Source: an uncultured Bacteroidales bacterium
GTDB lineage: Bacteria; Bacteroidota; Bacteroidia; Bacteroidales; JAIORY01
Direction of reading: 5' to 3'
Assembly (NCBI GenBank): GCA_964404485.1
Contig: CAYOKJ010000004.1
Location: 1-53,469, forward strand
DNA length: 53,469 bases
Positions 7,322-41,838 of this stretch are shown here, piece by piece; position 1 is the first letter of the stretch, and the number at the start of each line of letters is the position of its first letter. Position numbers and translations under genes: made by a program. The notes beneath the pieces are model-generated. The model saw only the letters and a list, made by a program, of their open reading frames with translations. It was not told where the DNA came from and searched no databases.

Positions 7322-7348
7322 TCTAAATATTGATAAAAACATTAAATC

Positions 7349-11839: not shown

Positions 11840-12745
11840 ATGAAACCAACATTACTAATTTTAGCTGCAGGACTTGGAAGCAGATATGGCGGAATAAAAC
11901 AAATGGACGGAATTGGCCCCAATGGTGAAACAATTATTGATTACTCTATTTATGATGCAATAAAAGCCGGTTATGGGAAAGTGGTTTTTATTATTAATGA
12001 AAAAATAAAAAAGAATTTTATAGAAATATTTGAAAAGAAATTATCCGGTAAAATTAAAACTGAATATGTTGTTCAGAAAATTTCTAATATTCCTGGTGAG
12101 TATAAAATTAGCTCAAATAGACAAAAACCATGGGGAACTGCACATGCAGTTCTTATGGCTGATTTAAAAATTAACGAACCCTTTTCTGTTATTAATGCTG
12201 ATGACTTTTATGGTTATGAATCTTTTAAAAATGTAGCTGATTATTTATCAAACATAGATTCTGTATATTCTAATGAATATTGCATGGCCGGCTATAAATT
12301 AAATAAAGTCCTTTCGGAGAATGGAAGTGTATCAAGGGGAGTTTGTAAAGTTGATAAAGATGATTATCTTATTGATATAAAAGAAATAACAAATATTGAA
12401 ATAGAGAATTCTGAAATTGGTTATATTAGTAAGTTGAATAATTGGAATTCCTTAACGGGAAATGAAATTATTTCAATGAATTTCTGGGGCTTTACACCTG
12501 CATTTTTTAATTTCTTGAAACAGGATTTTATAACATTTTTAGAAAAAAATTCAGATAAATCAAACGTGGAATTTTTAATTCCTGAGGTTGTCAATAATCT
12601 TACAAAAAATAATCTGGCTTCAACAAAAATGATAAACACAAATGCTGATTGGTTCGGAATTACTTATAAGGAAGACAGACAGTTAGCAGTTAAAAAATTG
12701 AAAAAGTTGATTGAGCTTGGAAAATATCCCGAAAGGCTTTATTAA
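11840..12745 (+). CDS. Sugar-1-phosphate nucleotidyltransferase (NTP_transferase, MurU-like)
   Basis: LAAGLGSRYGGIKQ, KPWGTAHAV, VINADDFYG, SMNFWGF, WFGITYKED. Confidence 0.85.
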   Translation: MKPTLLILAAGLGSRYGGIKQMDGIGPNGETIIDYSIYDAIKAGYGKVVFIINEKIKKNFIEIFEKKLSGKIKTEYVVQKISNIPGEYKISSNRQKPWGTAHAVLMADLKINEPFSVINADDFYGYESFKNVADYLSNIDSVYSNEYCMAGYKLNKVLSENGSVSRGVCKVDKDDYLIDIKEITNIEIENSEIGYISKLNNWNSLTGNEIISMNFWGFTPAFFNFLKQDFITFLEKNSDKSNVEFLIPEVVNNLTKNNLASTKMINTNADWFGITYKEDRQLAVKKLKKLIELGKYPERLY

Positions 12746-12759
12746 AAATAATTGTAATA

Positions 12760-13845
12760 ATGCAACAACATAAACTGGTAGAAATAATTAATAATTTTTT
12801 AATTAATGGAGAATTTGTTAGTTCAAAATCTCATGGCAATGGTCATATAAACGACACATTTTTGATTTCAACAACTTCTGAAAAATATATTTTACAAAAA
12901 ATAAATCACAAAATATTTAAAAATGTTGATAATCTGAATAAAAATATTATCAAGGCTTTAGAGCATTTCAATAAAAAGCAAAAAGAAAATCCGACAATAA
13001 AAAAATTTATAGAACCTGGAATTATTTTTTGTAAAAACGGTGATAATCATTTTAAAGATAAAGAAGGTAATTTTTGGCGATTGATGAATTTTATTCCAGG
13101 TAGTACCTCTATCGAGGTAGCTGAAAACCCAGAAACAGCTTTTGAAGCAGCCAAAGCTTTCGGGTATTTTCAAAATAAAATTATCGACCTTAAGCCTGAT
13201 GATTTTTTTTCGACAATTAAAGATTTTCATAATCTGGAAATGAGGATGAAATCATTTTACAGAGTGCTGGAAAAAAACACAAAAAACCGTAATCAATTTG
13301 CGTCAGAGGAAATCAAATTTGTAAAATCTCATGAATACCTCAACAATAAATTAAAAGAATTGCTCGAATCAAATCAGATACCAATCCGTGTAACTCATAA
13401 CGATACAAAAATCAATAATGTGCTCCTCGATAAAAATACGATGAAAGGAATCAGCGTTATTGATTTGGATACAATTATGCCGGGTACAATTCTTTTTGAT
13501 TTTGGTGATATGGTCAGAACTTTTACTAGTCCTGCTGAAGAGGACGAAAAAAACTTGTCAAAAGTAATTTTAAGATTAGAAATTTTTAAAGCAATGGCAA
13601 AAGGATATTTGTCGCAGCTAAAAGATTCTCTGACTAAAACCGAAATTGATTATTTGGTTTTTGGCGGAAAGCTTATGACTTTTATGATAGGTTTGAGATT
13701 TTTAACTGATTTTTTGGATGGAGATGTATATTTTAAAACTAAGAGGGAAAATCATAATCTTGACAGATGCAAAACTCAATTTAAACTTTTGACAGAGATG
13801 GAAAATATAGACGATGTTTTGCAAAGAATTATTAAAGAGATATAG
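12760..13845 (+). CDS. APH-fold sugar kinase (N-acetylhexosamine 1-kinase/AmgK/MdsC-like)
   Basis: GNGHINDTF, YILQKINH, Brenner motif HNDTKINN, VIDLDT, DFGD. Confidence 0.85.
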   Translation: MQQHKLVEIINNFLINGEFVSSKSHGNGHINDTFLISTTSEKYILQKINHKIFKNVDNLNKNIIKALEHFNKKQKENPTIKKFIEPGIIFCKNGDNHFKDKEGNFWRLMNFIPGSTSIEVAENPETAFEAAKAFGYFQNKIIDLKPDDFFSTIKDFHNLEMRMKSFYRVLEKNTKNRNQFASEEIKFVKSHEYLNNKLKELLESNQIPIRVTHNDTKINNVLLDKNTMKGISVIDLDTIMPGTILFDFGDMVRTFTSPAEEDEKNLSKVILRLEIFKAMAKGYLSQLKDSLTKTEIDYLVFGGKLMTFMIGLRFLTDFLDGDVYFKTKRENHNLDRCKTQFKLLTEMENIDDVLQRIIKEI

Positions 13846-18384: not shown

Positions 18385-18392
18385 TATCTTTG
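18385..18392 (+). promoter_or_regulatory. Candidate -7 element (TATCTTTG) for the Dlt-like operon
   Basis: TATCTTTGC 28 nt upstream of ATG 18420; supports 18420 rather than 18288 as the start. Confidence 0.65.
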
Positions 18393-18419: not shown

Positions 18420-19622
18420 ATGGGATTAACAAAAAGTTTATATTTATATTCAAAATATTTTACTTTTTCATTGTTTCGAAAGGAACGAACTTTTGTTTTT
18501 AGAGATGCTTCACGATTTTTCTTTTCTTCTTTTCCAAAGAATTTGAATATCAAGCTTGAAAAGGAAAAACCATTTGCCTTGGAAAATGCTGTTAACTGGT
18601 TGCTTCAATCACAGGAAATGATGAAAGATCAGGGTTTTGGTTCATATCATATTATTAATAAATGGTCGAGTTCTTATCCTGAAACTTCAGGTTATATTAT
18701 CCCGACTTTAATAGAGTTTGGCGAAAAAACAAATAATAAAGCTATAATTAAAAAGGCGATTTCTTCAGCTGACTGGCTTGTTGAAATTCAGAAAGAAAGT
18801 GGTGGTTGGCAAGGTGGAAGAGTTGAAGATGATAATCCAGAAATTGTTTTTAATACAGGACAAATTATTAGAGGATTATTAGCTGTTTATAAAATCACAA
18901 AAGAAAATAAATATTTAGACTCAGTTGTAAGAGCTGCTGATTGGCTGTGTTCGGTGCAATCAAAGGAAGGTTTTTGGAAACAAAATGCTTTAATGAATCG
19001 TGAGCGTGTTTATGATTCTTATATGGATGTGCCCCTGATTTTGATTTATTTTTTAACATCTAAGAAAAAATATCTTGAAGTTGCTCAGAAAAATATTGAT
19101 TGGATTATCAACAAAAAACAAAAATCGAATGGCTGGTTTGAAGATTGTGATAACACAATTAAAAATAATGACAGACCTATACTTCATACAATTTCTTATA
19201 CTGTTGATGGTTTGCTCGATTCCGGAATAATTCTTTGTGATGATAAAATGATTGAAGCTGCTGTAAAGCCGGCAAAAATTTTATTAGAAAAATTTCAAAA
19301 AGATGGAATTTTAAATGGAAGGTTCAACAGTAATTGGGAAGGCTCGGAATATATGTTGTTAACCGGATGTGCTCAGATTTCAATAATTTGGATGAAATTA
19401 TATAAAATTGGAAAAGGAAAAGAATATCTTGAAGCTGCAAAAAAAATGAATACTATTTTGGTCGCAATTCAAAAAAGAGGTAAAAAAGAATCTCTGGATA
19501 CAAAAGGTGCACTTTCGGGTTCATTTCCAATTTGGGGTAGGTACGAGCCATTTGCTTTTCCAAATTGGGCTACAAAATATTTTGTCGATTCTTTGATGAT
19601 GGAAAATAATAGTGAAAAATAA
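18420..19622 (+). CDS. Uncharacterised (alpha/alpha)-barrel protein with prenyltransferase/squalene-cyclase-like QW repeats
   Basis: SSYPETSGYII motif; repeats QKESGGW, QSKEGFW, QKSNGWF; no DxDD cyclase motif seen; start reassigned to ATG 18420. Confidence 0.7.
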   Translation: MGLTKSLYLYSKYFTFSLFRKERTFVFRDASRFFFSSFPKNLNIKLEKEKPFALENAVNWLLQSQEMMKDQGFGSYHIINKWSSSYPETSGYIIPTLIEFGEKTNNKAIIKKAISSADWLVEIQKESGGWQGGRVEDDNPEIVFNTGQIIRGLLAVYKITKENKYLDSVVRAADWLCSVQSKEGFWKQNALMNRERVYDSYMDVPLILIYFLTSKKKYLEVAQKNIDWIINKKQKSNGWFEDCDNTIKNNDRPILHTISYTVDGLLDSGIILCDDKMIEAAVKPAKILLEKFQKDGILNGRFNSNWEGSEYMLLTGCAQISIIWMKLYKIGKGKEYLEAAKKMNTILVAIQKRGKKESLDTKGALSGSFPIWGRYEPFAFPNWATKYFVDSLMMENNSEK

Positions 19623-19628
19623 TTAGCT

Positions 19629-21218
19629 TTGACTAATAATAACAAGCACAATATTTTGATTAATAGATTTGGAATTTCTGCTAAGATATTTTCAAATAAG
19701 CCTGCATTGGAAGTAAACGGTAAAAGTTTTTATTATTCTGATCTTGATGAAATATCAAATAAAATAGCAAATTGTATTATTGAAAATTCTGAAAAAGAAA
19801 TTAAAATGGCGGCTGTTTTGGGTCAGAAGAGTTTTGTAACATATTCTGCTGTTCTTGGGATTTTGAAAGCTTCAAAAGCATATGTTCCTTTAAATCCCAG
19901 ATTTCCTGTTGCCCGAACTTTAAAAATGATACAACTCTCAGGTGTTGATACAATTATTGTTAGCCACGAAAGCCTAGATTATTTGAAAGAAGTTTTGCTT
20001 GCGCTTCAAAAGCCTTTAAAAATTATTATTCCAGATATTGAAAATGCTGATGAATTAATTTTAAGTTTTCCGGAGTGTAAGTTTTTATATAAATCGAATA
20101 TTGAAAAAAGCAATAATCCAATAATTATTTCAACTCCTGAAGATATTGCATATTTGCTTTTTACCTCAGGAAGTACAGGCGAACCCAAAGCTGTTGCAGT
20201 TTCTAATTCTAATGTTATTGCATATCTGGATTTTATTTCGGAAAATTATAATCTTACCGAAGATGACAGATTTTCTCAAATCTTTGATCTTACTTTCGAT
20301 CTAAGTGTTCATGATATGTTTGTTTGCTGGCAAAGTGGTGGATGTCTTATTATTCCTGAAAAAGATTCCTCCTTTTTTATGCCGAAATACATCAAGAACA
20401 ATGATATTTCAGTTTGGTTTTCGGTGCCTTCACTCGCTGTTATGATGTCAAAGATGAGATTATTGAAGGCTGATTCTTTTACAAAATTAAAATATAGTTT
20501 CTTTTGTGGTGAACCTTTTTTACTGGAAACAGCATTGAATTGGCAAAAAGCAGCAAGCAAATCTAAAGTGATAAATCTTTATGGCCCTTCAGAAACCACA
20601 ATAGCAATAAGTAGTTGCGAGTTGAATAAAGAAAATAATCCTGAAAAAAGCGGAGTGTTTTCTATTGGAAAAGTATTTTCAAATCAGGAGCATTGCATAA
20701 TAAATAATAATGCTGACGTTTTATTAAATAATAAAATTGGTGAATTATGTTTTAGTGGTTCTCAAGTGATAAATGGCTATTTTAATGACACCGAAAATAC
20801 AAGCAAATGCTTTATCGAAATTCCCGAAAAGGGGAAGAAACTTTGGTATAAAACCGGTGATTTAATAATTGAAGAAAATGGAAATTTGTTTTATATGGGA
20901 CGGTCTGACAGCGAAGTAAAAATAAACGGTTTTAGAGTTAATCTTCAGGAAATTGAACATGTTGTGATGAAATTTTCGAATTCTGAATTTGTTGCTTGCG
21001 TGAGTTATAGTAAATCAAATGATGGAGTAAATAAACTATTTTCTTTTGTATGCCCGACTAAAGATAAAATTATCAGGGAAACTGAAATAATTAGTTTTTG
21101 CAAGGAAAAATTGCCCTGGTATATGATTCCTGAGATGGTATTTATTATTGATGAAATGCCATTAAATGAAAACGGGAAAATTGATAAAAGAGAACTAATT
21201 GAAAAGTATTTAAAATGA
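19629..21218 (+). CDS. Stand-alone amino-acid adenylation enzyme, DltA-like
   Basis: A-domain motifs LLFTSGSTGEPK, FDLSV, FFCGE, YGPSE, YKTGD, GRSDSEVKINGFRV, NGKIDK; no fused C or T domain. Confidence 0.9.
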   Translation: MTNNNKHNILINRFGISAKIFSNKPALEVNGKSFYYSDLDEISNKIANCIIENSEKEIKMAAVLGQKSFVTYSAVLGILKASKAYVPLNPRFPVARTLKMIQLSGVDTIIVSHESLDYLKEVLLALQKPLKIIIPDIENADELILSFPECKFLYKSNIEKSNNPIIISTPEDIAYLLFTSGSTGEPKAVAVSNSNVIAYLDFISENYNLTEDDRFSQIFDLTFDLSVHDMFVCWQSGGCLIIPEKDSSFFMPKYIKNNDISVWFSVPSLAVMMSKMRLLKADSFTKLKYSFFCGEPFLLETALNWQKAASKSKVINLYGPSETTIAISSCELNKENNPEKSGVFSIGKVFSNQEHCIINNNADVLLNNKIGELCFSGSQVINGYFNDTENTSKCFIEIPEKGKKLWYKTGDLIIEENGNLFYMGRSDSEVKINGFRVNLQEIEHVVMKFSNSEFVACVSYSKSNDGVNKLFSFVCPTKDKIIRETEIISFCKEKLPWYMIPEMVFIIDEMPLNENGKIDKRELIEKYLK

Positions 21219-21469
21219 ACGCTGCAGAAATAAAAAACTTTATAATTGAGAATTTGAAAAACAAACTTCAGCAGTTTGATATTAGCCATGGTGAGATTAA
21301 AAAAGATTTTGATTTTGTTCAAAGTGGATTACTCGATTCAATGGCTTTTGTTGAAATGATCTCGGAAATGGAACAGCATTTTAATGTTGAAATTGATTTT
21401 GAGAAAATTGATAAAGAAGATGCTTTTACTACTTTACGCGGAGTTAATGAATTGTTTTTAAATGCATAA
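21215..21469 (+). CDS. Acyl/aminoacyl carrier protein, DltC-like
   Basis: 84 aa and acidic; GLLDSM phosphopantetheine Ser42; ATGA overlap with the adenylation gene. Confidence 0.9.
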   Translation: MNAAEIKNFIIENLKNKLQQFDISHGEIKKDFDFVQSGLLDSMAFVEMISEMEQHFNVEIDFEKIDKEDAFTTLRGVNELFLNA

Positions 21470-21959
21470 GGAAATGGGAAATTTAAAAATAATACAAATA
21501 AAAGATTCGGCAAATGAATTTTTGCCTCAGGTTGAACAACAGTTTGCTGAATTATACAGTTTTATGAAAGACAAAGGATTAAAACTTAATTTGGTTGAAG
21601 ATGGTGAAAAAAAATGGATGAATTCAATAAAAAAAACCATCGGGAAATTTGTTGCTTTATTTGTTGTCCTTGATGGCAAAAAAGTTGCAGGCTTTGTTTC
21701 AGGAATAGTTAAGTTTACACCGGATTATCTCGGAAATCAAAAAGTTGGATTTCTGAGTTATCATTTTGTTGATAAAGAGTATCGGGGAAAAGGAATCGGA
21801 AAAAGTCTATTAAAGTCACTTGAAACCTGGTTTAAAGAGAAAAATATTTCTTCAATTGAAGTTCAGGCGAGTTTTATAAATGAGTATTCGAGGAAATATT
21901 TTGAAAAAAATGGCTATGAAAATGAGCTGGTTCAGTTAAGAAAGTTTGTTAAAAAATAA
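21462..21959 (+). CDS. GNAT family N-acyltransferase
   Basis: Motif A FVDKEYRGKGIGKSLL; overlaps the carrier gene stop. Confidence 0.85.
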   Translation: MHKEMGNLKIIQIKDSANEFLPQVEQQFAELYSFMKDKGLKLNLVEDGEKKWMNSIKKTIGKFVALFVVLDGKKVAGFVSGIVKFTPDYLGNQKVGFLSYHFVDKEYRGKGIGKSLLKSLETWFKEKNISSIEVQASFINEYSRKYFEKNGYENELVQLRKFVKK

Positions 21960-21961
21960 TC

Positions 21962-22825
21962 GTGCAAAAAGAATATATTCCATATCAAAAAATTGTTGAC
22001 CAACTTGATGTTAAAAAAGGCGATACACTTATTCTAGCCTCTAACATCACAAAACTGGCATTTCTTTCACGAAGAAAAGAAAATTCTTTTGATGTAAATC
22101 TTTTTATAGATAGTTTTAAGAAAAGATTAGGAAAAGATGGAACTTTAATAATTCCGGCATATAATCATAATTTAAAATCAGGAGGGAAATTTAATGTTAA
22201 AAATACAATGCCAATTACTGGCACATTAGCTCTTGTAGCTTTAAAACGCAAGGATTTTAAGCGAACCAAAAATCCACTCCATTCATTTCTGGTTTCGGGA
22301 AAATATGCTGATGATTTATGTAAAATGAATAACAAAAGTTCGTTTGGACCTGATTCTCCTTTTGCTTTCTTTTTAGAGAAAAATGCGAAAATGTTATTTG
22401 TATCTACAACTGTTACAGACGCATTTACTTTTACGCATTTTGTTGAGGAATCGGAGAAAGTTCATTATCGAAAATATCAAAAACTAAATATCAAAATTAC
22501 TGATGATAATAATCAGGTTTCTGACGAAGAGTATTTATTTTATAAGAAAAAAACCGGTTGGGATCTTGATTTTAAACCCTTGGAAGAATTATTCAGGGGA
22601 TCAATTTTAAATGAAAAATCTATCAACGGATTGAAATTTCAATCACTAAATATTAGCAATACTTATGAGATTATTAGAAAAGATATTGCTGAAAATAGGG
22701 CAAGAAGTATTGCTTATTTTAGTTTGAAGCTTTTTGTGAAGGATACTGTAAAACAAATATTAGGAAAGTTAAAAATATTTAAAACCACATTTGATAAAAT
22801 TCAAGATGTTAATAATTTATTGTGA
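21962..22825 (+). CDS. AAC(3)/YokD-fold N-acyltransferase
   Basis: LDVKKGDTLILAS, GTLIIPAYN, RTKNPLHSF, SFGPDSPF, TFTHFVEE; GTG start 2 bp after the GNAT gene. Confidence 0.8.
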   Translation: MQKEYIPYQKIVDQLDVKKGDTLILASNITKLAFLSRRKENSFDVNLFIDSFKKRLGKDGTLIIPAYNHNLKSGGKFNVKNTMPITGTLALVALKRKDFKRTKNPLHSFLVSGKYADDLCKMNNKSSFGPDSPFAFFLEKNAKMLFVSTTVTDAFTFTHFVEESEKVHYRKYQKLNIKITDDNNQVSDEEYLFYKKKTGWDLDFKPLEELFRGSILNEKSINGLKFQSLNISNTYEIIRKDIAENRARSIAYFSLKLFVKDTVKQILGKLKIFKTTFDKIQDVNNLL

Positions 22826-24110
22826 TAAAAAAAGTGCAAGACTTGAATACATTTGCAAACTGATTTTTAAAGATGTTTTGGGTGTTGAAATTAGTTTTAC
22901 AACAGATAAAAATGATTTTTCAAAATCAACTTTTGTAAAAATTAATTATTCTAAAGAAAAAATTTCGCAGGATGAATTATTCTTTTTTAGTGATGAATTT
23001 TTGTTTGAAAACAAAATTCGAAAATTTACTCCTGAAGTAATTAAGTTTGAGGATTTGCCTGTTATTTTTCCTAATCAAAATCAAGATTCTGTTTTTCCAT
23101 TCGATCCATTTGCAATGAGCTTTTATTTTGTCAGCCGGTATGAAGAATATTTTATGGATGACAAAAAGGATAAACATGGTAGAGTTAAGGCTGAAGCTTG
23201 CCTGGCTTTTAAAGCCGGCATTCATCATCGTCCTGTTGTTAATATTCTTGCAGATAAAATTAAGCTGTTGATTGAGAATAAAAATCCAACTTTTGTTTTA
23301 CCAGAAAAGGAATATAAATTTATTCCGACTTATGATATAGATATTGCTTTTGCTCATATTGGAAAAGGATTATTGAGGTCGATTGGTGGTTTTGGAAAGC
23401 TTGTAATAAGATTGAAAATCAAGGAATTCTTCGAAAGAATAATGACCCTTGCCGGAATTATTACTGATCCGTACAATAATTTTGATCAGTTGATTGAGCA
23501 ACAAAAAAAATATAATTTAAAATCATTATTTTTTGTAAACCTTGGTGATTATGGAACTTATGACAAAAATATTTCATACAGAAATAAACGACTTCAGAAA
23601 CTGTTAAAAAAGCTTTATAATGAGGTAGAGATTGGAATCCATCCATCATATAATTCAAATAAAAATCCTGAAAAAGTTAAAATTGAAAAAGAAAGACTTG
23701 AAGTAATATTAAATACAGAAGTTGTAAAAAGCAGGCAACATTTTTTAATATTATCTTTTCCTGAAACATATGAAAATTTAATAAAAATTAGTGTTACAGA
23801 TGATTATTCAATGGGTTTTGGATCGCAGATGGGATTTAGAGCAGGCATTTGTAATTCGTACAATTTTTATAATTTAATTGAAGATAAAGAAACATCTTTA
23901 AGAATTCATCCTTTTGCTTTTATGGATACAATGTTTGAAGAATACTTAAGATTAAATCCAACTCAAATATTTGAATACGTAAAACCTCTTATCGAGGAAA
24001 CAAAAAAATACAAGGGCGAATTATTTGTCATTTGGCATAATTATTCATTGAGCGATAATAAAGAAAAGTTGCATCTGTATAAAGAAATTATTAAATTAGC
24101 CAATGAATAA
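22806..24110 (+). CDS. Polysaccharide deacetylase-like protein (CE4/NodB-fold; DUF7033-type)
   Basis: FYFVSRYEEY, PTYDIDIA, EIGIHPSY, SRQHFL, DYSMGF, GFRAG, VIWHN; start at ATG 22806. Confidence 0.75.
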   Translation: MLIIYCDKKSARLEYICKLIFKDVLGVEISFTTDKNDFSKSTFVKINYSKEKISQDELFFFSDEFLFENKIRKFTPEVIKFEDLPVIFPNQNQDSVFPFDPFAMSFYFVSRYEEYFMDDKKDKHGRVKAEACLAFKAGIHHRPVVNILADKIKLLIENKNPTFVLPEKEYKFIPTYDIDIAFAHIGKGLLRSIGGFGKLVIRLKIKEFFERIMTLAGIITDPYNNFDQLIEQQKKYNLKSLFFVNLGDYGTYDKNISYRNKRLQKLLKKLYNEVEIGIHPSYNSNKNPEKVKIEKERLEVILNTEVVKSRQHFLILSFPETYENLIKISVTDDYSMGFGSQMGFRAGICNSYNFYNLIEDKETSLRIHPFAFMDTMFEEYLRLNPTQIFEYVKPLIEETKKYKGELFVIWHNYSLSDNKEKLHLYKEIIKLANE

Positions 24111-24112
24111 AA

Positions 24113-25048
24113 ATGATTAATTATTTAACATACAACGAAATTGATAGTAATAAATGGGATGAATGTATCAGGGCTTCCTTTAACGGGAATGTGTATGCAT
24201 ACACCTGGTATCTTGACATTGTCTGTGAAAACTGGGAGGCACTTGTTGAAGATGATTATGAAAGAGTTTTTCCATTAACCACTAGGAAAAAATTTGGAAT
24301 AAATTATTTGTACCAGCCATTTTTTACACAACAGCTTGGGATATTTTCAAAAAATATTTTAAAAAAAGAAACTGTTGAGAAATTTATAAATTCTATACCT
24401 GAGAAATATAAGTTTGCTGAAATTCTTTTAAATACTTTCAATAAAATTGATAAAAGAAAATTTATAGCTACACCTCAGTTAAATCATGAATTAGATCTTA
24501 TTAGTTCATACAAAATCCTAGAACGGCATTACTCAAAAAACACAAAGCGAAATATTAAAAAAGCTGAAAAGGCAGGTTTAAAAATTATTAAAAATGTTAA
24601 ACCAGACGAAATTATTGAACTTTTTAGAAATAATCGTGGAAAAACTGTGATGACACTTAAAGAGAGAAATTATACAATTTTAAGTAGGTTAATTTATGCA
24701 GCTATCTACAGAGGAATTGCTCAAATTTATGGTGCTTATACTCAAAACAATCAATTGTGTTCGGCTGTAGTGTTTATTGAAGGAAACAAAAAAGCTGTTT
24801 TTATTTTTTCAGGAAGCAACTCAGAAGCGAGAGAAAACGGTGCAATGCCTTTTTTAATTGATGCTTTTATTAAAGACAATTCTGATAAACATTTAACTCT
24901 TGATTTTGATGGATCAAACGATGAGAATCTTGCACGTTTTTATAAAGGATTTGGTTCGAAAGAGGTGTTTTATTTAAAGTTGGAGTTTAATAAATTATCC
25001 GGATTTGCCGGACAAGTTTTAAAAGTATATAAAAAGATGAAAGCTTAA
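24113..25048 (+). CDS. FemAB-like/GNAT-fold acyltransferase
   Basis: KWDECI, YAYTWYLD, YQPFFTQQLG, YSKNTKRNIKKA, LDFDGS, LARFYKGFG. Confidence 0.75.
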   Translation: MINYLTYNEIDSNKWDECIRASFNGNVYAYTWYLDIVCENWEALVEDDYERVFPLTTRKKFGINYLYQPFFTQQLGIFSKNILKKETVEKFINSIPEKYKFAEILLNTFNKIDKRKFIATPQLNHELDLISSYKILERHYSKNTKRNIKKAEKAGLKIIKNVKPDEIIELFRNNRGKTVMTLKERNYTILSRLIYAAIYRGIAQIYGAYTQNNQLCSAVVFIEGNKKAVFIFSGSNSEARENGAMPFLIDAFIKDNSDKHLTLDFDGSNDENLARFYKGFGSKEVFYLKLEFNKLSGFAGQVLKVYKKMKA

Positions 25049-26556: not shown

Positions 26557-28599
26557 TTAAGGTACATCATAAATATTGCTTTCGTTTCTGTATCCTGAAT
26601 TGCTTTCATACCAGTCTGGAAATAAAGCACCATCACTTTGAGCCCAATCAGCAAATTTTAAATAGGTTGCTGTTATTTCTGTTTTTTCGTTAGGATATTC
26701 GAACTGAGCCCAAATATTTATAGCCCATGGCAGATTATTAACTGTTTTATAATACCTTCCATTACCAAATTGACTATTATCATCCCATGTTCCAAATATG
26801 CTTGTCTCAGCTAAATCAGTTGGACTCTGATTTGGAAGGTGTACTTCGTAGTCTCTGTTTTTATCAATGATTATAAATGGATTAAATGGTGGTATTCCTA
26901 ATTGAGCTTGTGTCATCGGTGAATTTAGATTTACACTAATGTTAAAAGTATCTGGGCTTACATAAGGTGCTCCAGGGCTTGTATTTACACCTATACCGGA
27001 TCCAGGATGAGGTAATAGGTTATAAGCATTATCATAAGCTATAATTACAGCTTTGGATTGACCTGCTTCTGTATTATTAGCATTCAGAGTAATAAATCCT
27101 TCTTGCAAATTTTGTCCACCTACAGTATTTACTGATGAGGGAGTAGATAATAGTTCAAAACCAAATCCATTTTGGAAATTAGCACCATGAGCTCTTGCAA
27201 CAAATTCTGCATCTATTTTTACAATTTTATTTTCACCATTTGTAATTTGATTAAAATTGTAGTTAATTACAAGGTCGTTAAAATCATAATCACCTTTTGC
27301 TGGCCAGAGGTCTTCATATGCCAGGGTTCCGAAGTCAACTTCGCAAGGGTAGTAATTGTTGAAAGCATAATCTGCATCAGCTGGGTAATCATCAAATAAA
27401 TCTGGAATATCGTCTCCATCCGTATCAGTTGATGTATAATCTATTAATGGAAGTTCAAGAATCACACATGGTAATGGATCTACAGTTACATAAAAAATGC
27501 AATCATTAAAATCGTGATCGCAATTAGATGGATCGCCTCCATTATTGTCTCTTCTAATATCCTCAAAACAAAGTAAAGCTCTGTTTCTTGAAGGATCATT
27601 AATAAATACACTATGTTGTTTTAAATTCGGATTTGGTTCGGGATTAAAATCGCGCTCTGAATAATAAAGACCATAGCCTTCAGAAACAGTTCCACTTGAT
27701 TGTTCCCACCCATTTGCTGCAAGAACCCATCCAATTCCGGTATTTTCAGGAAATGAGCCAATATTTACTTTGTTTCCTGCTTGAAGTCCACCACCACTAT
27801 TTGAGTAAGAACTATTTGGGAAAATAACAAAAATGGTGTCAATGTCATTAACTGTTGCCGGAGGTGAACCTAAATTATATGTATAAAAACCAAGAACGTT
27901 TTTATAACCAGCACCTTCGTGTACAAAAGTAACATATACGTCCCCTTCGCATATAAGTTCAAGATCATGCTGATATGAACTTAAAAGATATTCAGGGTGA
28001 TGTGCGTTTACGTGCTGCCTTTCTGGTAAGGAATTTGTAATATCTGTCATAAATCCCGAAGTAATTACATCATTTACAGACTCCAGATAATCAGGGACAC
28101 CCTGACTATTATATGTTCCAAGAAATTCAAATATACTGTTTGTGCTTTTTGTTTGAAGTAGTCCTTTGGATTTATTTGGCGTGAATTGTCCGCCAAAGCT
28201 ATATTCAGCAACACCATTTATTATGGGCACTTCAATAAAATCAATCAAACCAATATGCTCTGTTGCAAGAATAATATTTTCGCTTGTCGCTGAAACAGGT
28301 CTTTTGACTTCAAAGTATCCATTTTCATCAGTTACTCCTTTTACCATTTGACGCCCTCCAAGTTCAGGGAAATCAGTATAAGCTTTAACTATTACTCTTG
28401 ATATTGCTTTATCCTGATTATCCAGTGCGTAGATTTTTATTGTAATATCCTGTGAAGTTTTCCAGTCAAAATCTGGGTTGACTACTATGTTTTCCATGTT
28501 TATATTAACATCATCTGTGTTAATATTGTTATTAAATTTATTACAAGAAGCAATAATTATAATTATGGAAATTAATAAAATGTTTTTCAGTGATTTCAT
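26557..28599 (-). CDS. LruC-domain outer-membrane lipoprotein (DUF4114 + DUF4842-like)
   Basis: Lipobox IASC; FDWKT; FVHEGAGYKNVLGFY; CFEDIRR..DHDFND; Ca-binding-like DTDGDDIPD; AYEDLWPAKGDYDFNDLV; LPWAI; FADW. Confidence 0.75.
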   Translation of the reverse strand: MKSLKNILLISIIIIIASCNKFNNNINTDDVNINMENIVVNPDFDWKTSQDITIKIYALDNQDKAISRVIVKAYTDFPELGGRQMVKGVTDENGYFEVKRPVSATSENIILATEHIGLIDFIEVPIINGVAEYSFGGQFTPNKSKGLLQTKSTNSIFEFLGTYNSQGVPDYLESVNDVITSGFMTDITNSLPERQHVNAHHPEYLLSSYQHDLELICEGDVYVTFVHEGAGYKNVLGFYTYNLGSPPATVNDIDTIFVIFPNSSYSNSGGGLQAGNKVNIGSFPENTGIGWVLAANGWEQSSGTVSEGYGLYYSERDFNPEPNPNLKQHSVFINDPSRNRALLCFEDIRRDNNGGDPSNCDHDFNDCIFYVTVDPLPCVILELPLIDYTSTDTDGDDIPDLFDDYPADADYAFNNYYPCEVDFGTLAYEDLWPAKGDYDFNDLVINYNFNQITNGENKIVKIDAEFVARAHGANFQNGFGFELLSTPSSVNTVGGQNLQEGFITLNANNTEAGQSKAVIIAYDNAYNLLPHPGSGIGVNTSPGAPYVSPDTFNISVNLNSPMTQAQLGIPPFNPFIIIDKNRDYEVHLPNQSPTDLAETSIFGTWDDNSQFGNGRYYKTVNNLPWAINIWAQFEYPNEKTEITATYLKFADWAQSDGALFPDWYESNSGYRNESNIYDVP

Positions 28600-28759: not shown

Positions 28760-30133
28760 TTAATTTTGAGAATTATAATGGCTGTAATTTATCAATTGGT
28801 CGTATTGAGTTCCAGGCTCACGATAATAAACTAAAATGTTATAATCGTTTTCAGTTTCAAAATGATTTCCTTCAATGAAACTGATATCAGCTTGCGATTT
28901 CCCGTTTTTCTGAAATGCGTATAAATAATTATAATAACCTTGTTTTAAGAAAAGTGAAGCTTCGTAAGCTTTTGTTTCATAATTGTATTTTAAACGGTTA
29001 TTATCAGAAAGCTGCCAATTAGTTAATGATCCTAAAATATAAAGTTCTCCATCAATTAATGGTACAGGGTAAGGTAAAGTGAAATGTACAAAAGAGTAAT
29101 CAGCTTCTGTTGGAGTGTTTCCTCTTTCTGAGGTCTTAATAAGTTTTTTACCATTAATATCCTGTAGAGAAATATAAACTTTATATGGTCTTATATTATC
29201 AGTATGTAAAAAAACCTGATTGGTATTATTAAAATAATCTATTTTTTTTATCCTTTCGGATTGATATCGTAAATCCTTTATGTCAAAATGCCTGAATTCA
29301 TTTCCACCATTAAAAACATTTTCCTTATCGTGATTGAATATTATATCGTTTCCTTTTATCATTTGGGCTTTAAGATCATAAATTATATTATCCCATCTTC
29401 CGTTTTGTTGAAGAATAACAGTTAATTCACGATATGGATTTGCAATTTCAAAACCATTTTTATGAACAGTAAAATCTATCTCCTGTTTATAATTCATATC
29501 AGCAATACTTGTAGCTTTATGAATACTTGCTTCTATCGAAACTTTTTGTTCAACTATCATAAATCGAAATGTAAAAATGACATTTTCATCTTTGTCATCA
29601 TCATCAAAAACCTTTAGTATATAGTTTCCCGAAATAATGGGTTTTGTATAATCTGACGGGAAAATAGTTTCGTAATGTGTAAATTCTGTATGAGTGTTAA
29701 AAGAATATTGATAATCACTGATTTCATCAATGGTAAAACCATCAATATATTTTGATTTTGGAATATCGGAAGTTTTCCAGTTTGCATTACAATGAATAAT
29801 GGTGTATTTATAATCTTTTACATCTCCTTCCAAATCGTCAAATGAAAGTTTTAGTTTGTCATCTGTGTTTAATCTGAGAACAGCTGCGGACATTTCCCAT
29901 CCTTCTTTATGAAGTAGAACTGTTTTAATATATTTTTTATAGATATAATTTTCGTTTCTGATAAAATCCTTTTTGTAATAATCATCCTGATCATAATCTG
30001 CAATTAAAATTGAGTTTTCAGAATTTGAAAAAAAAATATTTTGATTGGTTTTTCCGAATGAATAATCGTAAATAATCAAAAAAACCAGTAGAATTATTAT
30101 AAATATGTAGGATTTCTTATTCTGTTTTTTCAT
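28760..30133 (-). CDS. DUF5103 / T9SS plug-like protein
   Basis: LKLSFDDL, YTIIHCNANW, SGNYILKV, LQQNGRWDN, GGNEFR, LKQGYYNY, ETENDY. Confidence 0.75.
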   Translation of the reverse strand: MKKQNKKSYIFIIILLVFLIIYDYSFGKTNQNIFFSNSENSILIADYDQDDYYKKDFIRNENYIYKKYIKTVLLHKEGWEMSAAVLRLNTDDKLKLSFDDLEGDVKDYKYTIIHCNANWKTSDIPKSKYIDGFTIDEISDYQYSFNTHTEFTHYETIFPSDYTKPIISGNYILKVFDDDDKDENVIFTFRFMIVEQKVSIEASIHKATSIADMNYKQEIDFTVHKNGFEIANPYRELTVILQQNGRWDNIIYDLKAQMIKGNDIIFNHDKENVFNGGNEFRHFDIKDLRYQSERIKKIDYFNNTNQVFLHTDNIRPYKVYISLQDINGKKLIKTSERGNTPTEADYSFVHFTLPYPVPLIDGELYILGSLTNWQLSDNNRLKYNYETKAYEASLFLKQGYYNYLYAFQKNGKSQADISFIEGNHFETENDYNILVYYREPGTQYDQLINYSHYNSQN

Positions 30134-30343: not shown

Positions 30344-31693
30344 ATGTCGAAAGAAATAAAAATTAAAAAAGGTTTAAACATAAATTTATTTGGTGAAGCA
30401 GAAAAGACAATTTCTGAGTTAAAAGCTAAACAATATGCAATTAAACCTACAGATTTTGTTGGAGTTTTCCCGAAATTATTAGTAAAAGAGGGTGATTTGG
30501 TAAAAGCCGGATCACCTGTTTTTTATGATAAACACAGGGAAAATATTAAATTTACTGCACCAGTCAGTGGAAAGATTGCAGGAATCCTTCGCGGAGCAAA
30601 AAGAGTTTTGCAAGAAATAATTATTGATGCTGATGAGGAAATATTTTATGAATCCTTTGGAAAAGAAAATCCCGATGATCTGAAGAAAGAAAAAATAATA
30701 GAAAAATTATTGAAAAGTGGTATATGGCCTTTCATTCGTCAAAGACCATATTCAATAATTGCAGACCCTGATACCGAACCAAAAGCCATTTTTATTTCAG
30801 GTTTTGATACATCTCCTCTCGCTCCTGATTACGATTTTCTAATTCATGGAAAAGGTGAAGAATTTCAAACAGGATTAAATGCAATTGCAAAATTAACATC
30901 AGGAAAAGTTCACTTAAATATTAATAACGACCTTCCGGGGTCAAGAGTATTTACAAACTCAAAAAATGTACAGGTAAATAATTTTACCGGACCTCACCCA
31001 TCTGGTAACGTTGGTACACAGATAAACAAGATTGATCCTATAAACAAAGGTGATATTGTGTGGTATCTTCGTCCGCAGGAAGTTATAACAATAGGTAAAT
31101 TATTTCTTGAAGGAAAATTTGACGTTTCTAGAGTAATTGCTTTGACTGGCTCTGAAATAAAAAAAACTAGTTATTTTAAAACTTATATTGGAGCTTCAAT
31201 CGAAGGAATGATTGAAAAAAATCTTGAACAGGAAAATGTAAGGTGTATAAGTGGAAATGTTCTTACCGGAACGAAAATTGAAAAATCAGGTTTTTTGAGT
31301 TTCTACGATTATCAGCTTACAGTTATTCCCGAAGGTGACCATTATGACTTTCTTGGATGGATGTTGCCGGGATTAAAAAAACATAGTTTTTACAGGACTT
31401 TCATGGCTTGGTTAACTCCAAAGAAAAAATTCAAAGTTCATACAAATCTTAATGGGGGCGAAAGGTCTTTTGTTATGACCGGTCAATTTGAGAGAGTGTT
31501 TCCGTTAGATATTTATCCAATGCAATTGTTAAAAGCAATTATTATTGAGGATATTGATGCAATGGAGAATCTTGGAATTTATGAAGTTGATGAAGAAGAT
31601 TTTGCTCTATGTGAGTACATCAGTACATCAAAAATTAATATACAATCTGTTGTAAGAAATGGTTTGGATATAATTAGAAAGGAAATGAGTTAA
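30344..31693 (+). CDS. nqrA: Na+-translocating NADH:quinone reductase subunit A
   Basis: IKIKKGLNINL, FTAPVSG, GPHPSGNVG, EEDFALC; first gene of the nqr operon. Confidence 0.96.
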   Translation: MSKEIKIKKGLNINLFGEAEKTISELKAKQYAIKPTDFVGVFPKLLVKEGDLVKAGSPVFYDKHRENIKFTAPVSGKIAGILRGAKRVLQEIIIDADEEIFYESFGKENPDDLKKEKIIEKLLKSGIWPFIRQRPYSIIADPDTEPKAIFISGFDTSPLAPDYDFLIHGKGEEFQTGLNAIAKLTSGKVHLNINNDLPGSRVFTNSKNVQVNNFTGPHPSGNVGTQINKIDPINKGDIVWYLRPQEVITIGKLFLEGKFDVSRVIALTGSEIKKTSYFKTYIGASIEGMIEKNLEQENVRCISGNVLTGTKIEKSGFLSFYDYQLTVIPEGDHYDFLGWMLPGLKKHSFYRTFMAWLTPKKKFKVHTNLNGGERSFVMTGQFERVFPLDIYPMQLLKAIIIEDIDAMENLGIYEVDEEDFALCEYISTSKINIQSVVRNGLDIIRKEMS

Positions 31694-31790
31694 AGATTTA
31701 TGTACTTAAAGTGAAATAAATTTAAGTCATTATTGCTCATTTATTTTTTGTTGTTAAAAGCCAAAGCACTAAATTGAAAAAAATAAATAC

Positions 31791-32948
31791 ATGAAATTAA
31801 TTAGAAACATATTAGATAATATAAAACCTCATGTTGAAAAAGGTGGAAAATTTCATTTTTTCAGATCCACTTTTGACGCTATTGAAACTTTGTTTTTTGT
31901 ACAAAATCATGTTACTCAAAAAGGAAGTCATATTCGCGATAGTGTGGATATGAAAAGGACAATGATTGTTGTTGTACTTGCTGTAATTCCAGCCTTGCTT
32001 TTTGGAATGTGGAATACAGGTAGATTACATTTTTTATCAATAGGTGAAGCAGCTGCTTTTTGGCCAACATTTTGGTATGGATTTTTTAAAATATTACCTA
32101 TTATTATTGTAACTTATGTTGTAGGACTGACTATTGAAATAATTTTTGCACAAAAAAGAGGGCACGAAGTAAACGAAGGATTTTTTGTTTCTGGTATTTT
32201 AATTCCATTAATACTTCCGGCAGATGTTCCATTATGGATGGTAGCTGTTGCAACTGCCTTTGCAGTGATAATTGGAAAAGAAGTTTTTGGTGGATCAGGG
32301 ATGAATATTATGAATCCTGCTTTGATTGCAAGGGCTTTTCTGTTTTTTGCATACCCGTCAAAAATGTCGGGTGATGTAATATGGGTTAGCGGAATGACGA
32401 ATAATACAAATATTGTGGATGGATTTTCCGGAGCAACTCCTCTAGGAAATGCCTTGGTTGGAAATCTTGATAAATTACCAAGTCCAATGGATATGTTTCT
32501 TGGAATAATACCCGGATCAATTGGTGAGACTTCTGTAGTTGCTATTCTTATTGGTGCGGCAATATTGCTTTATACAGGAGTTGGCAGTTGGAGAATAATG
32601 TTCTCGGTTGTTGCCGGTGCGTTAATTATGGGATTTATTTTTAATCTTACAGCAGTAAATGATTATATGGCACTTCCTGCTTGGGAGCACTTGATAATGG
32701 GTGGTTTTGCTTTTGGTGCAATTTTTATGGCTACCGATCCGGTTACGGCAACACAAACTAATAAAGGAAAATATATTTACGGATTCTTAATTGGTTTGCT
32801 TGCTATACTTATAAGAGTGGTAAATCCGGCATACCCTGAAGGTATGATGCTGGCTATATTATTGATGAATGTTTTTGCTCCTCTTATAGATCATTATGTG
32901 GTTGCAGCAAACATTAAGAAAAGATTAAAAAGAATAAAAACAGTATAG
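31791..32948 (+). CDS. nqrB: Na+-NQR subunit B
   Basis: HIRDSVDMKRTM, GKEVFGG, FMN site SGATPL, FMATDPV, AYPEG. Confidence 0.96.
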   Translation: MKLIRNILDNIKPHVEKGGKFHFFRSTFDAIETLFFVQNHVTQKGSHIRDSVDMKRTMIVVVLAVIPALLFGMWNTGRLHFLSIGEAAAFWPTFWYGFFKILPIIIVTYVVGLTIEIIFAQKRGHEVNEGFFVSGILIPLILPADVPLWMVAVATAFAVIIGKEVFGGSGMNIMNPALIARAFLFFAYPSKMSGDVIWVSGMTNNTNIVDGFSGATPLGNALVGNLDKLPSPMDMFLGIIPGSIGETSVVAILIGAAILLYTGVGSWRIMFSVVAGALIMGFIFNLTAVNDYMALPAWEHLIMGGFAFGAIFMATDPVTATQTNKGKYIYGFLIGLLAILIRVVNPAYPEGMMLAILLMNVFAPLIDHYVVAANIKKRLKRIKTV

Positions 32949-32985
32949 AAAAATATAATAATCAAAAATTATAAAACTTATAATT

Positions 32986-33723
32986 ATGTATAGTAATTTC
33001 TACATATTCCGGTATGCCAGTATTCTGGTAATATTGGTTGCTGCAATTTTATCTGCTGCAGCGATGTTGCTTAAACCTTATCAGGAACGAAATGTTGCTA
33101 TTGATAAAATGCAGGGGATATTGAAATCAGCAAATATTGAAGCAGATGCAAGCAATGCAATTCAACTTTATGATAAATATATTACTGATGAAAAAGTAAT
33201 TAATTCCAAAGGAGAATTAGTAAGTGAGTATATAAACGGTGATTTTGTAAAAGGTGATATACGTGCTTTAGACATTAAAGTTAAAGAAGAACTTTTTAAA
33301 AAATCAAAAGGAGAAGAATTTTCCCTTTCGATATTAATTTGTGATATTGATGGCAGAAAAGTAAATATTATTCCAATGTTTGGCAAAGGGTTATGGGGTC
33401 CAATTTGGGGAAATATCGCTCTTGACGAAAATTTCAATAAAGTAGTTGGAGTTTATTTCGATCATAAAGGAGAAACTCCTGGCTTAGGTGCTGAAATAAA
33501 TAAAACCAAATTTATGGATCAATTTGTAGGAAAAAAATTATTCAACGAAAAAGGTGAATTTGTATCAATTGATGTTGTGAAAGGTGGAGTTGATTTGAAA
33601 CCTAAAAATATGAGAATACATGGTGTTGATGCTATTTCGGGTGGAACAATTACAAGTAATTCTGTTAAAGATATGCTAAAAGACTGTTTAGAAAATTATG
33701 TACCTTATTTCAAAAAACAATAA
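32986..33723 (+). CDS. nqrC: Na+-NQR subunit C
   Basis: GKGLWGPIWG, GETPGLGAEI, FMN site DAISGGTITS. Confidence 0.96.
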   Translation: MYSNFYIFRYASILVILVAAILSAAAMLLKPYQERNVAIDKMQGILKSANIEADASNAIQLYDKYITDEKVINSKGELVSEYINGDFVKGDIRALDIKVKEELFKKSKGEEFSLSILICDIDGRKVNIIPMFGKGLWGPIWGNIALDENFNKVVGVYFDHKGETPGLGAEINKTKFMDQFVGKKLFNEKGEFVSIDVVKGGVDLKPKNMRIHGVDAISGGTITSNSVKDMLKDCLENYVPYFKKQ

Positions 33724-33728
33724 AGTAA

Positions 33729-34385
33729 ATGAGCACAGAAATTAAAGAAAAGGAAGCAATGTTTTCAGTAAAAAACAGAAAATTATTACTGAATCCTCTA
33801 AATAAAGAAAATCCAATAACAGTACAAGTATTGGGAATTTGCTCTGCACTTGCTGTTACAGCAAAGTTAGAACCGGCTTTTGTGATGTCATTATCAGTTA
33901 TGGCAGTTCTTGCAATTGCAAATGTTTTAATCTCATTTATGAGAAACGGCATCCCGCCACGTATCAGAATAATTGTTCAGTTAGTAGTGGTTGCTTCATT
34001 GGTAATTCTTGTTGACCAATTACTAAAAGCATTTTTATTTGATGTAAGTAAACAGTTATCAGTTTTTGTAGGTTTGATAATTACAAACTGTATAATTATG
34101 GGAAGACTCGAAGCATTTGCTATGGCGAATAAACCCTGGCCTGCTTTCCTCGACGGATTAGGAAACGCCTTTGGATATGCGTGGATACTTCTCGTTGTTG
34201 CTTTTTTTAGAGAGCTTTTAGGATCCGGAACTATCTGGGGATACCAAGTAATACCGGAAGATTTTTATTTATTTGGTTATGAAAATAACGGCTTGATGAT
34301 TTTGCCTCCAATGGCACTGATAGTTGTTGGAATAATTATTTGGGTACAAAGATCGAAAACCAAAGAATTGATAGAAGATAAATAG
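33729..34385 (+). CDS. nqrD: Na+-NQR subunit D
   Basis: VQVLGICSALAVT, GLIITNCIIMGR, FFRELLGSG. Confidence 0.96.
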   Translation: MSTEIKEKEAMFSVKNRKLLLNPLNKENPITVQVLGICSALAVTAKLEPAFVMSLSVMAVLAIANVLISFMRNGIPPRIRIIVQLVVVASLVILVDQLLKAFLFDVSKQLSVFVGLIITNCIIMGRLEAFAMANKPWPAFLDGLGNAFGYAWILLVVAFFRELLGSGTIWGYQVIPEDFYLFGYENNGLMILPPMALIVVGIIIWVQRSKTKELIEDK

Positions 34386-34445
34386 AATGTTGGATACTTG
34401 ATACTGAAATTAAAAATTAAGAAACAAAATTAAACAAACATAATC

Positions 34446-35063: not shown

Positions 35064-35095
35064 TTTTTAATTAAGAAAGTTTAAATATTTTTAAA

Positions 35096-36352: not shown

Positions 36353-36365
36353 ATTGTAAATGTAG

Positions 36366-36392
36366 AAGTCTCCCTTGTGGAGACTTTTTTTC
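36366..36392 (+). terminator. Intrinsic terminator after nqrF
   Basis: Stem aagtctcc / ggagactt, 5-nt loop, T-tract. Confidence 0.85.
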
Positions 36393-36495
36393 TATATATT
36401 ATGAGTTTTGTATATGTACTATTTAGAATTTTATTGGTAATCAAATCTGTGGCTTTTTATTTATTTGAGATTAATAATAATGAGCCATTTTTTTA

Positions 36496-41826: not shown

Positions 41827-41838
41827 AATTATTTTGAT

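Follow-up and report, generated by a model that had tools for sequence, protein, structure and literature searches.

What do seven tightly packed genes, coding for a barrel protein, a stand-alone adenylation enzyme, a carrier protein, three proteins of acyltransferase fold and a deacetylase, make together in an uncultured Bacteroidales bacterium? The question is raised by positions 18420 to 25048 (+ strand) of contig CAYOKJ010000004.1 (assembly GCA_964404485.1), and was addressed by analysis of the whole stretch of 53,469 nucleotides (nt) in which these genes lie, referred to here as the window. A first-pass annotation had presented the locus as a Dlt-like system, possibly a new one, in which a single carrier protein feeds three acyltransferases. 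With slightly better than even confidence, we read the operon as one for the cytoplasmic tailoring of a nucleotide-activated N-acetyl amino sugar, an elaborated form of the Vim branch of the Wbp/Vim pathway. Small amino acids would most likely re-acylate the sugar by two routes, one dependent on tRNA and the other on a carrier protein. By analogy, the operon looks like an uncharacterised extension of the pathway making the sugar that anchors type IX secretion system (T9SS) cargo to the cell surface.

The operon is real and widely conserved, and its arrangement is far beyond chance, since the same genes occur in the same order in dozens of Bacteroidales and several Flavobacteriales genomes at 25-60% identity; the co-conservation proposed earlier as a check is thus present. 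All seven open reading frames (ORFs), named g1 to g7 in order, lie head-to-tail on the + strand with the coordinates and families first given, and the tight coupling (gaps of 6 nt or less, or overlaps) was confirmed. The junctions measure +6 nt for g1/g2, -4 for g2/g3, -8 for g3/g4, +2 for g4/g5 and +2 for g6/g7, and g5/g6 overlap by 35 nt, or by 20 nt if g6 starts at the ATG at 22806. A gap of 137 nt separates g7 from the next gene. From this spacing we infer that g1 to g7 are co-transcribed. The single TAnnTTTG promoter proposed for them has a suitably placed candidate, TATCTTTG, at 18385 to 18392 (+), which matches the Bacteroidota -7 promoter consensus 28 nt 5' of the g1 ATG. The motif carries no weight by itself, being present in 46 copies on the + strand of the window (0.86 per kb), so that only the position of this copy favours a promoter role. 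A scan for sigma-70 promoters and terminators was uninformative, the host being a member of the Bacteroidota. The window as a whole is a housekeeping region of 30% G+C, whose best relative is JAIORY010000355.1 (74-89% protein identity).

The reading proposed here begins with the last two genes. g6 (22791 to 24110, +) encodes a predicted VimE-family N-deacetylase with an N-terminal DUF7033 domain (94 bits) followed by a CE4-like domain. Against the VimE model NF053580 it scores 177.6 bits (E 3e-52, profile positions 82-428 of 431), under the cut-off of 440, and its sequence makes it a clear VimE homologue below the equivalog level. Its candidate residues Asp182, His284 and His317 are conserved across 95 family members. 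A neighbour-joining tree divides the VimE-like deacetylases into two paralogous clades, P and M. Many genomes hold both, the clade P gene directly 5' of g1 and the clade M gene between g5 and g7 (L006:2798-4108, with equivalents in L011, L016, L021-L024, L088, L089 and other loci); the window has clade M only, in the form of g6.

In Porphyromonas gingivalis and Tannerella forsythia, the Wbp/Vim pathway ends with VimE and VimA (Veith et al. 2020, PMC7468200). According to the proposal, VimE takes the 2-N-acetyl group off UDP-2,3-diacetamido-2,3-dideoxy-glucuronic acid (UDP-GlcNAc3NAcA) (PMC7468200), and the FemAB-like VimA 'presumably' adds serine or glycine, from a donor that these papers do not establish (PMC7468200; PMC13086638). 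This yields the linking sugar, to the free amine of which T9SS cargo is attached by an amide bond (PMC7468200; PMC13086638).

g7 (24113 to 25048, +), the partner of g6, encodes a putative FemX-like aminoacyltransferase. Its AlphaFold2 (AF2) model (pLDDT 93.4) has the double-GNAT architecture, and its top Foldseek match is FemX of Weissella viridescens (TM-score 0.66-0.71, E 3e-14), followed by the aminoacyl-tRNA-dependent peptide synthases Sbb17 and Sba18 (amino-sugar aminoacylases solved with streptothrisamine), FemA and the synthase domains of MprF; E-values for FemX, Sbb17, Sba18 and FemA range from about 1e-10 to 3e-14. FemX of Weissella and the enzymes Orf11, Sbb17 and Sba18 of streptothricin-type pathways thus include its best structural matches and have the same double-GNAT fold; they differ from g7 in sequence (just 12-15% identity), and g7 belongs to a large Bacteroidota-specific family (3119 homologues). 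At the sequence level, Pfam FemAB was sub-threshold (22 bits, cut-off 24), no NCBIfam model including TIGR03019 matched g7, and phmmer against PDB sequences gave nothing usable for g6 or g7, so that the fold search alone was informative. The structural neighbours of g7 all take their aminoacyl group from tRNA. In the BD-12 pathway, the related enzyme Orf11 attaches glycine from Gly-tRNA to streptothrisamine, an amino-sugar intermediate (PMC12945691).

Where the flanking sequence is long enough, g7 in most loci adjoins a VimE-like gene or lies within a few kb of one, whether or not g1 to g5 are present. Given the fold of an aminoacyl-tRNA-dependent transferase and the occurrence of g6-g7 pairs without any adenylation domain (A-domain) or carrier, g7 probably uses aminoacyl-tRNA and not the carrier g3. 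The same two points go against the claim that one carrier serves all three acyltransferase folds. The orthologues of g6 and g7 in JAIORY010000355.1 (L001:8429-9981) are parted by a 1.9-kb insertion, with a 73-residue ORF and a gene for a 406-residue secreted protein whose C-terminus resembles a T9SS sorting domain (...IEIFPNPA...). The presence of a putative T9SS cargo gene at this place may be a coincidence or a hint of a functional link.

The likeness to the Wbp/Vim pathway lies in an adjacent VimE-family deacetylase (about 430-440 residues) and FemAB-like GNAT (about 310 residues) in a T9SS-bearing member of the Bacteroidota, in the proposed exchange of a UDP-amino-sugar N-acetyl group for an amino acid, and in relatives that adjoin Epimerase_2 genes of WecB/WbpI type. 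The window differs in having the order E-A instead of A-E and no vimF glycosyltransferase, and the deacetylases here form two paralogous clades. Moreover, g6 does not reach the equivalog threshold for VimE, no likeness of g7 to TIGR03019 was detected, and five extra genes (barrel, A-domain, carrier, GNAT and AAC(3)-fold protein) have no counterpart in the described pathway.

How the five extra genes relate to this pair can be read from about 200 loci of species-representative genomes, collected with four seeds (g7, g1, a profile of g5 and the pocket region of g2) and scored with the window proteins. Some loci hold the core only, a VimE-like gene and g7 at the same site between dnaX and a MacB/FtsX permease gene, without g1 to g5. 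Others have the order RadC, WecB-type UDP-GlcNAc 2-epimerase (TIGR00236, 300 bits), VimE-like gene, g7, upp and HAD. The full colinear g1-g7 arrangement is found in dozens of Bacteroidales genomes (35-60% identity) and, directly behind WecB, in several Flavobacteriales genomes (25-45% identity), and one form of it carries a second, paralogous VimE-like gene 5' of g1. In a further variant, g1 is followed by a formyltransferase gene of about 257 residues that replaces g2 to g5, with an overlap or a 1-nt gap, the same tight spacing as where g2 follows g1. Finally, there are WecB-g1-g5-g6-g7 clusters lacking g2 to g4, and shuffled orders that keep the gene content (e.g., g6-g1-g2-g3-g4-g5...g7).

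These variants define three parts. The pair g6-g7 is a self-sufficient core, g1 to g5 are an accessory block that is itself modular, and the A-domain, carrier and GNAT genes are a three-gene insert between g1 and g5, which comes or goes as a unit in the loci compared. The operon is accordingly a composite of core pair and accessory block. Since a formyltransferase can stand in for g2-g5, the accessory block may serve to add an N-acyl group of variable kind to an amine. The scheme put forward earlier, a soluble cytoplasmic pathway in which a deacetylase unmasks a sugar amine that is then N-acylated, with an amino-acid A-domain and carrier as one donor, is supported by the VimE homology of g6 and, in relatives, by UDP-GlcNAc 2-epimerase and Wbp neighbours.

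The gene contexts have also been weighed as a sign of another kind of product. Mycothiol and bacillithiol are made by glycosyl transfer, deacetylation, amino-acid ligation and GNAT acetylation, and the product of the operon might by the same logic be a small molecule of the cytoplasm and not a surface glycan, namely an amino-sugar metabolite with an N-aminoacyl (N-acetylated) group, or else a secondary metabolite. Its deacetylase, amino-acid addition and GNAT steps mirror MshB, MshC and MshD. The operon has no glycosyltransferase, flippase or polymerase, and the contexts examined are all housekeeping (dnaX, upp, radC, gapA) and not O-antigen or capsule loci. Around g5-g7 pairs and g2-g6 clusters without g1 or g7, only housekeeping neighbours and no O-antigen or capsule genes were found. 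In one Flavobacteriales variant, a GT4 enzyme replaces the deacetylase. This enzyme matches BshA and MshA only generically, far under the cut-offs, and the pocket code of the A-domain is of the Gly/Ala type, not the Cys type. The deacetylase is specifically VimE-like, VimE being proposed to act on a UDP-sugar for lipopolysaccharide (LPS), and relatives adjoin WecB/WbpI and Wbp genes. We judge a small-molecule product improbable.

For the carrier-dependent route, the central enzyme is g2 (19629 to 21218, +), a stand-alone amino-acid adenylation enzyme by Pfam, NCBIfam and PDB searches (PF00501 AMP-binding 200.7 bits; TIGR01733 308.4 bits, slightly below the cut-off of 317.4). The motifs reported for it are there, FDLSV at residue 223 and FFCGE, which contains FCGE, at residue 291. 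It holds the conserved equivalents of Asp235 (the Asp of FDLSV) and Lys517 (the Lys of NGKIDK), the core motifs of an A-domain for an alpha-amino acid. Read against the motifs of GrsA-PheA, its ten-residue pocket code is DLHSFCLIAK. Of 55 g2-related sequences recovered, 35 have the identical code, among them copies from Flavobacteriales with an overall identity of just 32-35%.

Two A-domains whose identity was fixed by operon context served as controls: one from an AlmEFG-type operon of Vibrio penaeicida (A-domain, carrier, Lip_A_acyltrans) and one from a Lysinibacillus dltABCD operon (MBOAT and DltD confirmed). g2 is nearer to the AlmE-like enzyme (33% identity, 251 bits) than to DltA (28%, 184 bits), and its best single-domain PDB match is likewise AlmE of Vibrio cholerae (4oxi, 250 bits), with DltA structures at 172-178 bits. 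The pocket codes are DLHSICIVTK for the AlmE-like enzyme and DLMSLCLVAK for DltA, from which g2 differs at 3 of the 10 positions. His239, Cys301 and FDLSVHDMF are common to g2 and the AlmE-like enzyme. g2 remains below the DltA equivalogs (TIGR01734, 261.7 bits with a cut-off of 559.85; NF003417, 274.6 bits with a cut-off of 476), so that Dlt-like is not the best label for the system. The pocket is of the DltA/AlmE type and the substrate is likely a small amino acid, with glycine, D-alanine and L-alanine as candidates. AlmE activates glycine and mis-activates D-alanine (PMC12930378).

The Cys of FCGE had been taken as the mark of D-alanine selection. However, LgrA module 2, which activates glycine, and the AlmE-like enzyme have this residue (position 301) as well, and a D-Ala specificity of g2 based on it was rejected because Gly-activating enzymes carry the same Cys. 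In the earlier model, DltA-like chemistry provides one D-alanyl-S-carrier donor to the GNAT, AAC(3) and Fem-like proteins, which would place D-alanine on the amine unmasked by the deacetylase. The three-position difference from the context-verified DltA code, a carrier whose closest solved homologues are DltC and the tight coupling of the seven genes all speak for such a donor. Nevertheless, many genomes have g6-g7 with neither A-domain nor carrier, the fold of g7 is of the tRNA-dependent type, g2 is nearer to AlmE (Gly) than to DltA and shares His239 and FDLSVHDMF with the AlmE-like enzyme, and even AlmE merely mis-activates D-alanine (PMC12930378). A single D-alanyl donor is in our view unlikely. 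As in DltABCD, an A-domain is expected to load a DltC-like carrier, whereas the operon lacks the MBOAT protein DltB as well as DltD, is cytoplasmic throughout, has another genomic context and does not reach the DltA and DltC equivalog thresholds.

Outside the phylum, the nearest relative of g2 among the matches listed comes from an Acidobacteria genome (41% identity, code DLHSLCLIAK) and is followed by its own carrier gene. Its neighbours encode an Epimerase_2 protein (WbpI-like), a GFO_IDH_MocA-hexapeptide acetyltransferase fusion (WbpB-WbpD-like) and a DegT aminotransferase (WbpE-like), a set corresponding to the enzymes that build 2,3-diamino-2,3-dideoxy-uronic acids. Pairs of an 'A-domain' and a g5-like protein in Omnitrophota and Brevibacillus were discarded as equivalents, being ligases without Asp235. 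Another family of stand-alone A-domains, with the code DLFSLCLIAK, is very widespread among the matches listed (Acidobacteria, Proteobacteria, Actinobacteria and other phyla); a luciferase-like monooxygenase gene regularly precedes it, and a carrier-like gene then follows in several loci. To our knowledge, this family represents another uncharacterised carrier system for small amino acids.

g3 (21215 to 21469, +) encodes an 84-residue DltC-like phosphopantetheine carrier (PP-binding, 29.6 bits) with Ser42 in the motif LLDSM, a serine at least 90% conserved in 21 aligned g3 sequences. Its nearest solved homologues are D-alanyl carrier proteins (DltC, 25 bits), and it scores 32.8 bits with the DltC model NF003464, below the equivalog cut-off of 68. 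g4 (21462 to 21959, +) encodes a single-domain GNAT with the motif RGKGIG (Acetyltransf_1, 53.9 bits).

g5 (21962 to 22825, +) encodes a predicted N-acyltransferase of AAC(3) fold (Antibiotic_NAT, PF02522, 74.5 bits, cut-off 25), with the conserved motifs HPLHSF, DSPF and H..E and no sequence match in PDB by phmmer. A resistance AAC(3) was considered and rejected, the AAC_3 equivalog NF033082 giving 33.1 bits against a cut-off of 270. Firmicutes relatives of g5 adjoin DegT sugar aminotransferases and DUF4910 proteins, and g5 occurs without g2-g4 in the WecB-g1-g5-g6-g7 clusters; because of these two settings, g5 fits an amino-sugar N-acyltransferase able to act without the carrier.

A locus of a Verrucomicrobiota genome (L210) ties the insert and g5 together. 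It groups a g5-like protein of AAC(3) fold (E 2e-19), an A-domain (36% identity, DLHSLCLIAK) and a single fusion ORF, one part of which is a carrier domain resembling g3 (31% identity, E 2e-9, serine motif FDSF) and the other a GNAT resembling g4 (36% identity, E 2e-32). By sequence, the A-domain, carrier, GNAT and AAC(3) quartet is a functional unit that recurs outside the Bacteroidota in at least one genome, and the fusion ties GNATs of the g4 type functionally to a carrier-bound intermediate. Whether the quartet is more generally a mobile module of Bacteroidota and one Verrucomicrobiota genome, with an NRPS-like (nonribosomal peptide synthetase-like) carrier by which nucleotide amino sugars receive N-aminoacyl or N-(acetyl-aminoacyl) groups, is a tentative idea, which we hold as possible rather than probable. 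We found no account of such a route in the making of glycans.

The closeness of g2 to AlmE, which belongs to the system that adds glycine to lipid A in Vibrio cholerae, also brings in a reading in which a membrane lipid or lipid A is aminoacylated in the manner of Dlt, Alm or MprF, with g7 as an aminoacyl-lipid synthase and the carrier delivering glycine or alanine, possibly together with the adjacent MacB/FtsX-type permease. The aminoacyl-phosphatidylglycerol synthase domains of MprF are among the structural neighbours of g7, and a MacB-like permease gene stands behind the operon in most loci. This permease gene is, however, a highly conserved syntenic neighbour, beyond the 137-nt gap that follows g7, and g7 is closer to FemX and Sbb17 (TM-score 0.66-0.71) than to MprF (0.54-0.58). 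A Pfam search of the operon and of the other large ORFs of the window found no MBOAT, DltD, lipid A acyltransferase or glycosyltransferase, in agreement with the first-pass annotation, which had noted that DltB-, DltD- and AlmG-type partners and glycosyltransferases are missing from the operon. The same search did recover MBOAT and DltD in the Lysinibacillus control locus and Lip_A_acyltrans in the Vibrio one. None of the seven proteins (0 of 7) has a long hydrophobic run, which suggests that all are soluble. Since the VimE-type deacetylase and the linkage to WecB point, besides, to nucleotide sugars, lipid aminoacylation appears highly improbable. AlmEFG resembles the operon in its stand-alone A-domain and small carrier and differs in its partners, the operon having a soluble GNAT and an AAC(3)-fold protein in place of an AlmG-type lipid A acyltransferase. 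The acceptor would differ too, probably a sugar amine (amide) here versus a hydroxyl of a lipid A acyl chain (ester) in AlmEFG.

g1 (18420 to 19622, +), the first gene of the accessory block, encodes a soluble (alpha/alpha)6-barrel protein with the fold of sugar enzymes. Pfam gave weak generic repeat matches (SQHop_cyclase_C, GH127, GH88, Pec_lyase, C5-epim_C), and the (alpha/alpha)6 barrel of the AF2 model (pLDDT 93.6) has as top Foldseek matches GH88 unsaturated glucuronyl hydrolases and AGE-type 2-epimerases (TM-score 0.65-0.71, 13-15% identity). Foldseek cannot separate hydrolase from epimerase, and no reaction was assigned. The search for g1 homologues gave 1554, and the protein has many invariant polar residues. 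In the loci examined, g1 always heads the accessory block, with g2-g5, the formyltransferase, g5 alone or GT4 behind it.

Sugar tailoring is thus supported by the WecB neighbours, the Wbp-type cluster of Acidobacteria, the quartet of Verrucomicrobiota, the DegT neighbours in Firmicutes, the lack of long hydrophobic runs in the seven proteins and the T9SS genes of the window. The latter encode a plug protein (T9SS_plug_1st, 28760 to 30133, - strand) and a 1040-residue Laminin_G_3 cargo protein with a Por_Secre_tail domain (49892 to 53014, -), from which it follows that the organism has a T9SS. In the pathway that we propose, g6 would strip an N-acetyl group off a UDP-sugar supplied by genes elsewhere in the genome, the likeliest substrate being UDP-2,3-diacetamido-2,3-dideoxy-hexuronic acid or a related UDP-HexNAc such as a UDP-ManNAc derivative. 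g7 would then place an amino acid from aminoacyl-tRNA on the amine freed by g6. In parallel, g2 would activate one small amino acid (glycine, or D- or L-alanine) and load it on the carrier g3, g4 may act on the carrier-bound aminoacyl group by N-acetylation or transfer, and g5 may N-acylate a sugar amine, probably a second one; g4 and g5 would share the work, one of them handling the aminoacyl group on the carrier and the other the sugar. The net product would bear an N-aminoacyl or N-(acetyl-aminoacyl) substituent where sister clusters are predicted to install a formyl group, and g1 would contribute as a sugar-binding (alpha/alpha)6 enzyme at the head of the accessory block. Glycosyltransferases encoded elsewhere would use the finished nucleotide sugar for a surface glycan; as a T9SS is present in the organism, the foremost candidate is the LPS-type anchor of its cargo.

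Several points weigh against this pathway. The score of g6 (177.6 versus 440 bits) and the absence of a TIGR03019 match for g7 leave orthology with VimE and VimA unproven. No Wbp gene, glycosyltransferase, flippase or ligase was found in the window, so that substrate and product lack a local anchor. The window has one deacetylase for as many as two amines to be acylated. How g4 and g5 divide the work, what g1 does, and which amino acid is used and in which chirality, are all matters of inference. Acidobacteria and Verrucomicrobiota contribute a single supporting locus each, and the link to the T9SS comes only from analogy and from the organism's own T9SS.

Carrier-dependent acylation of sugar amines has a parallel in the O1 O-antigen of Vibrio cholerae, where the RfbK-O tetronate module brings an acyl-ligase and a carrier into sugar tailoring. 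Among O-antigen variants, the same amino sugar may bear either an N-formyl or an N-(acetyl-glycyl) group. These formyl and aminoacyl alternatives mirror the exchange of the formyltransferase for g2-g5 described above; the enzyme families differ, and the comparison is offered as an analogy only.

The rest of the window contains several clusters of its own. At 11840 to 13845 (+), an NTP_transferase gene (301 residues) is adjacent to one for an APH-family kinase of sugar/choline type (361 residues), a pair that we take to resemble AmgK/MurU of MurNAc salvage to UDP-MurNAc. At 40708 to 49885 (-), three genes similar to GH130 mannoside phosphorylases and an unassigned 423-residue ORF accompany all the genes of an ABC sugar importer (one solute-binding protein, a pair of permeases and a MalK-type ATPase); glycan uptake by an ABC importer instead of SusC/D is unusual for Bacteroidota. 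A complete operon for the Na+-translocating NADH:quinone reductase, nqrA-F, followed by an ApbE flavin transferase gene, occupies 30344 to 37546 (+). At 4927 to 8992 (+), a proline-racemase-family gene precedes genes for S37/S28 and C69 peptidases, a GDSL lipase and CutC, which together may serve peptide or hydroxyproline utilisation; as this cluster is not linked to the operon, it provides no evidence for a supply of D-amino acids. Finally, a 680-residue lipoprotein with DUF4114 and DUF4842 is encoded at 26557 to 28599 (-), with the permease gene on one side and the T9SS plug gene on the other.

As to novelty, the component families are all known and the related two-enzyme Vim pathway is already published. 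The annotation of the locus as a new system, which had not considered the closely related Wbp/Vim pathway, holds in a narrower form: our literature search found no description of the carrier-dependent quartet, nor of its combination with a Vim-like pair. In Prevotella intermedia, where the linking sugar is an N-alanyl-deoxyhexose, the biosynthesis of the N-alanyl sugar is stated to be unknown, and the same paper holds that the Bacteroidota probably have several linking-sugar pathways (PMC11969387).

The attachment of amino acids to sugar amines, as in T9SS linking sugars with serine, glycine or alanine and in aminoacylated O-antigen sugars, is poorly understood. Here, an aminoacyltransferase of tRNA type is paired with a carrier system of NRPS type, apparently on one sugar scaffold. 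The operon is conserved across two classes of Bacteroidota and is accompanied by natural 'knock-out' variants with the core only, with formyl for aminoacyl, or without the carrier. If the idea of a mobile module is true, the quartet acting on top of a tRNA-dependent Vim-like pair would yield a sugar with two different N-acyl groups derived from amino acids. It could then explain aminoacylated O-antigen sugars and T9SS linking sugars not made by the Vim route, such as that of Prevotella intermedia. Should the operon make the sugar that anchors T9SS cargo, environmental Bacteroidota would have in this module a source of diversity for their surface glycans.

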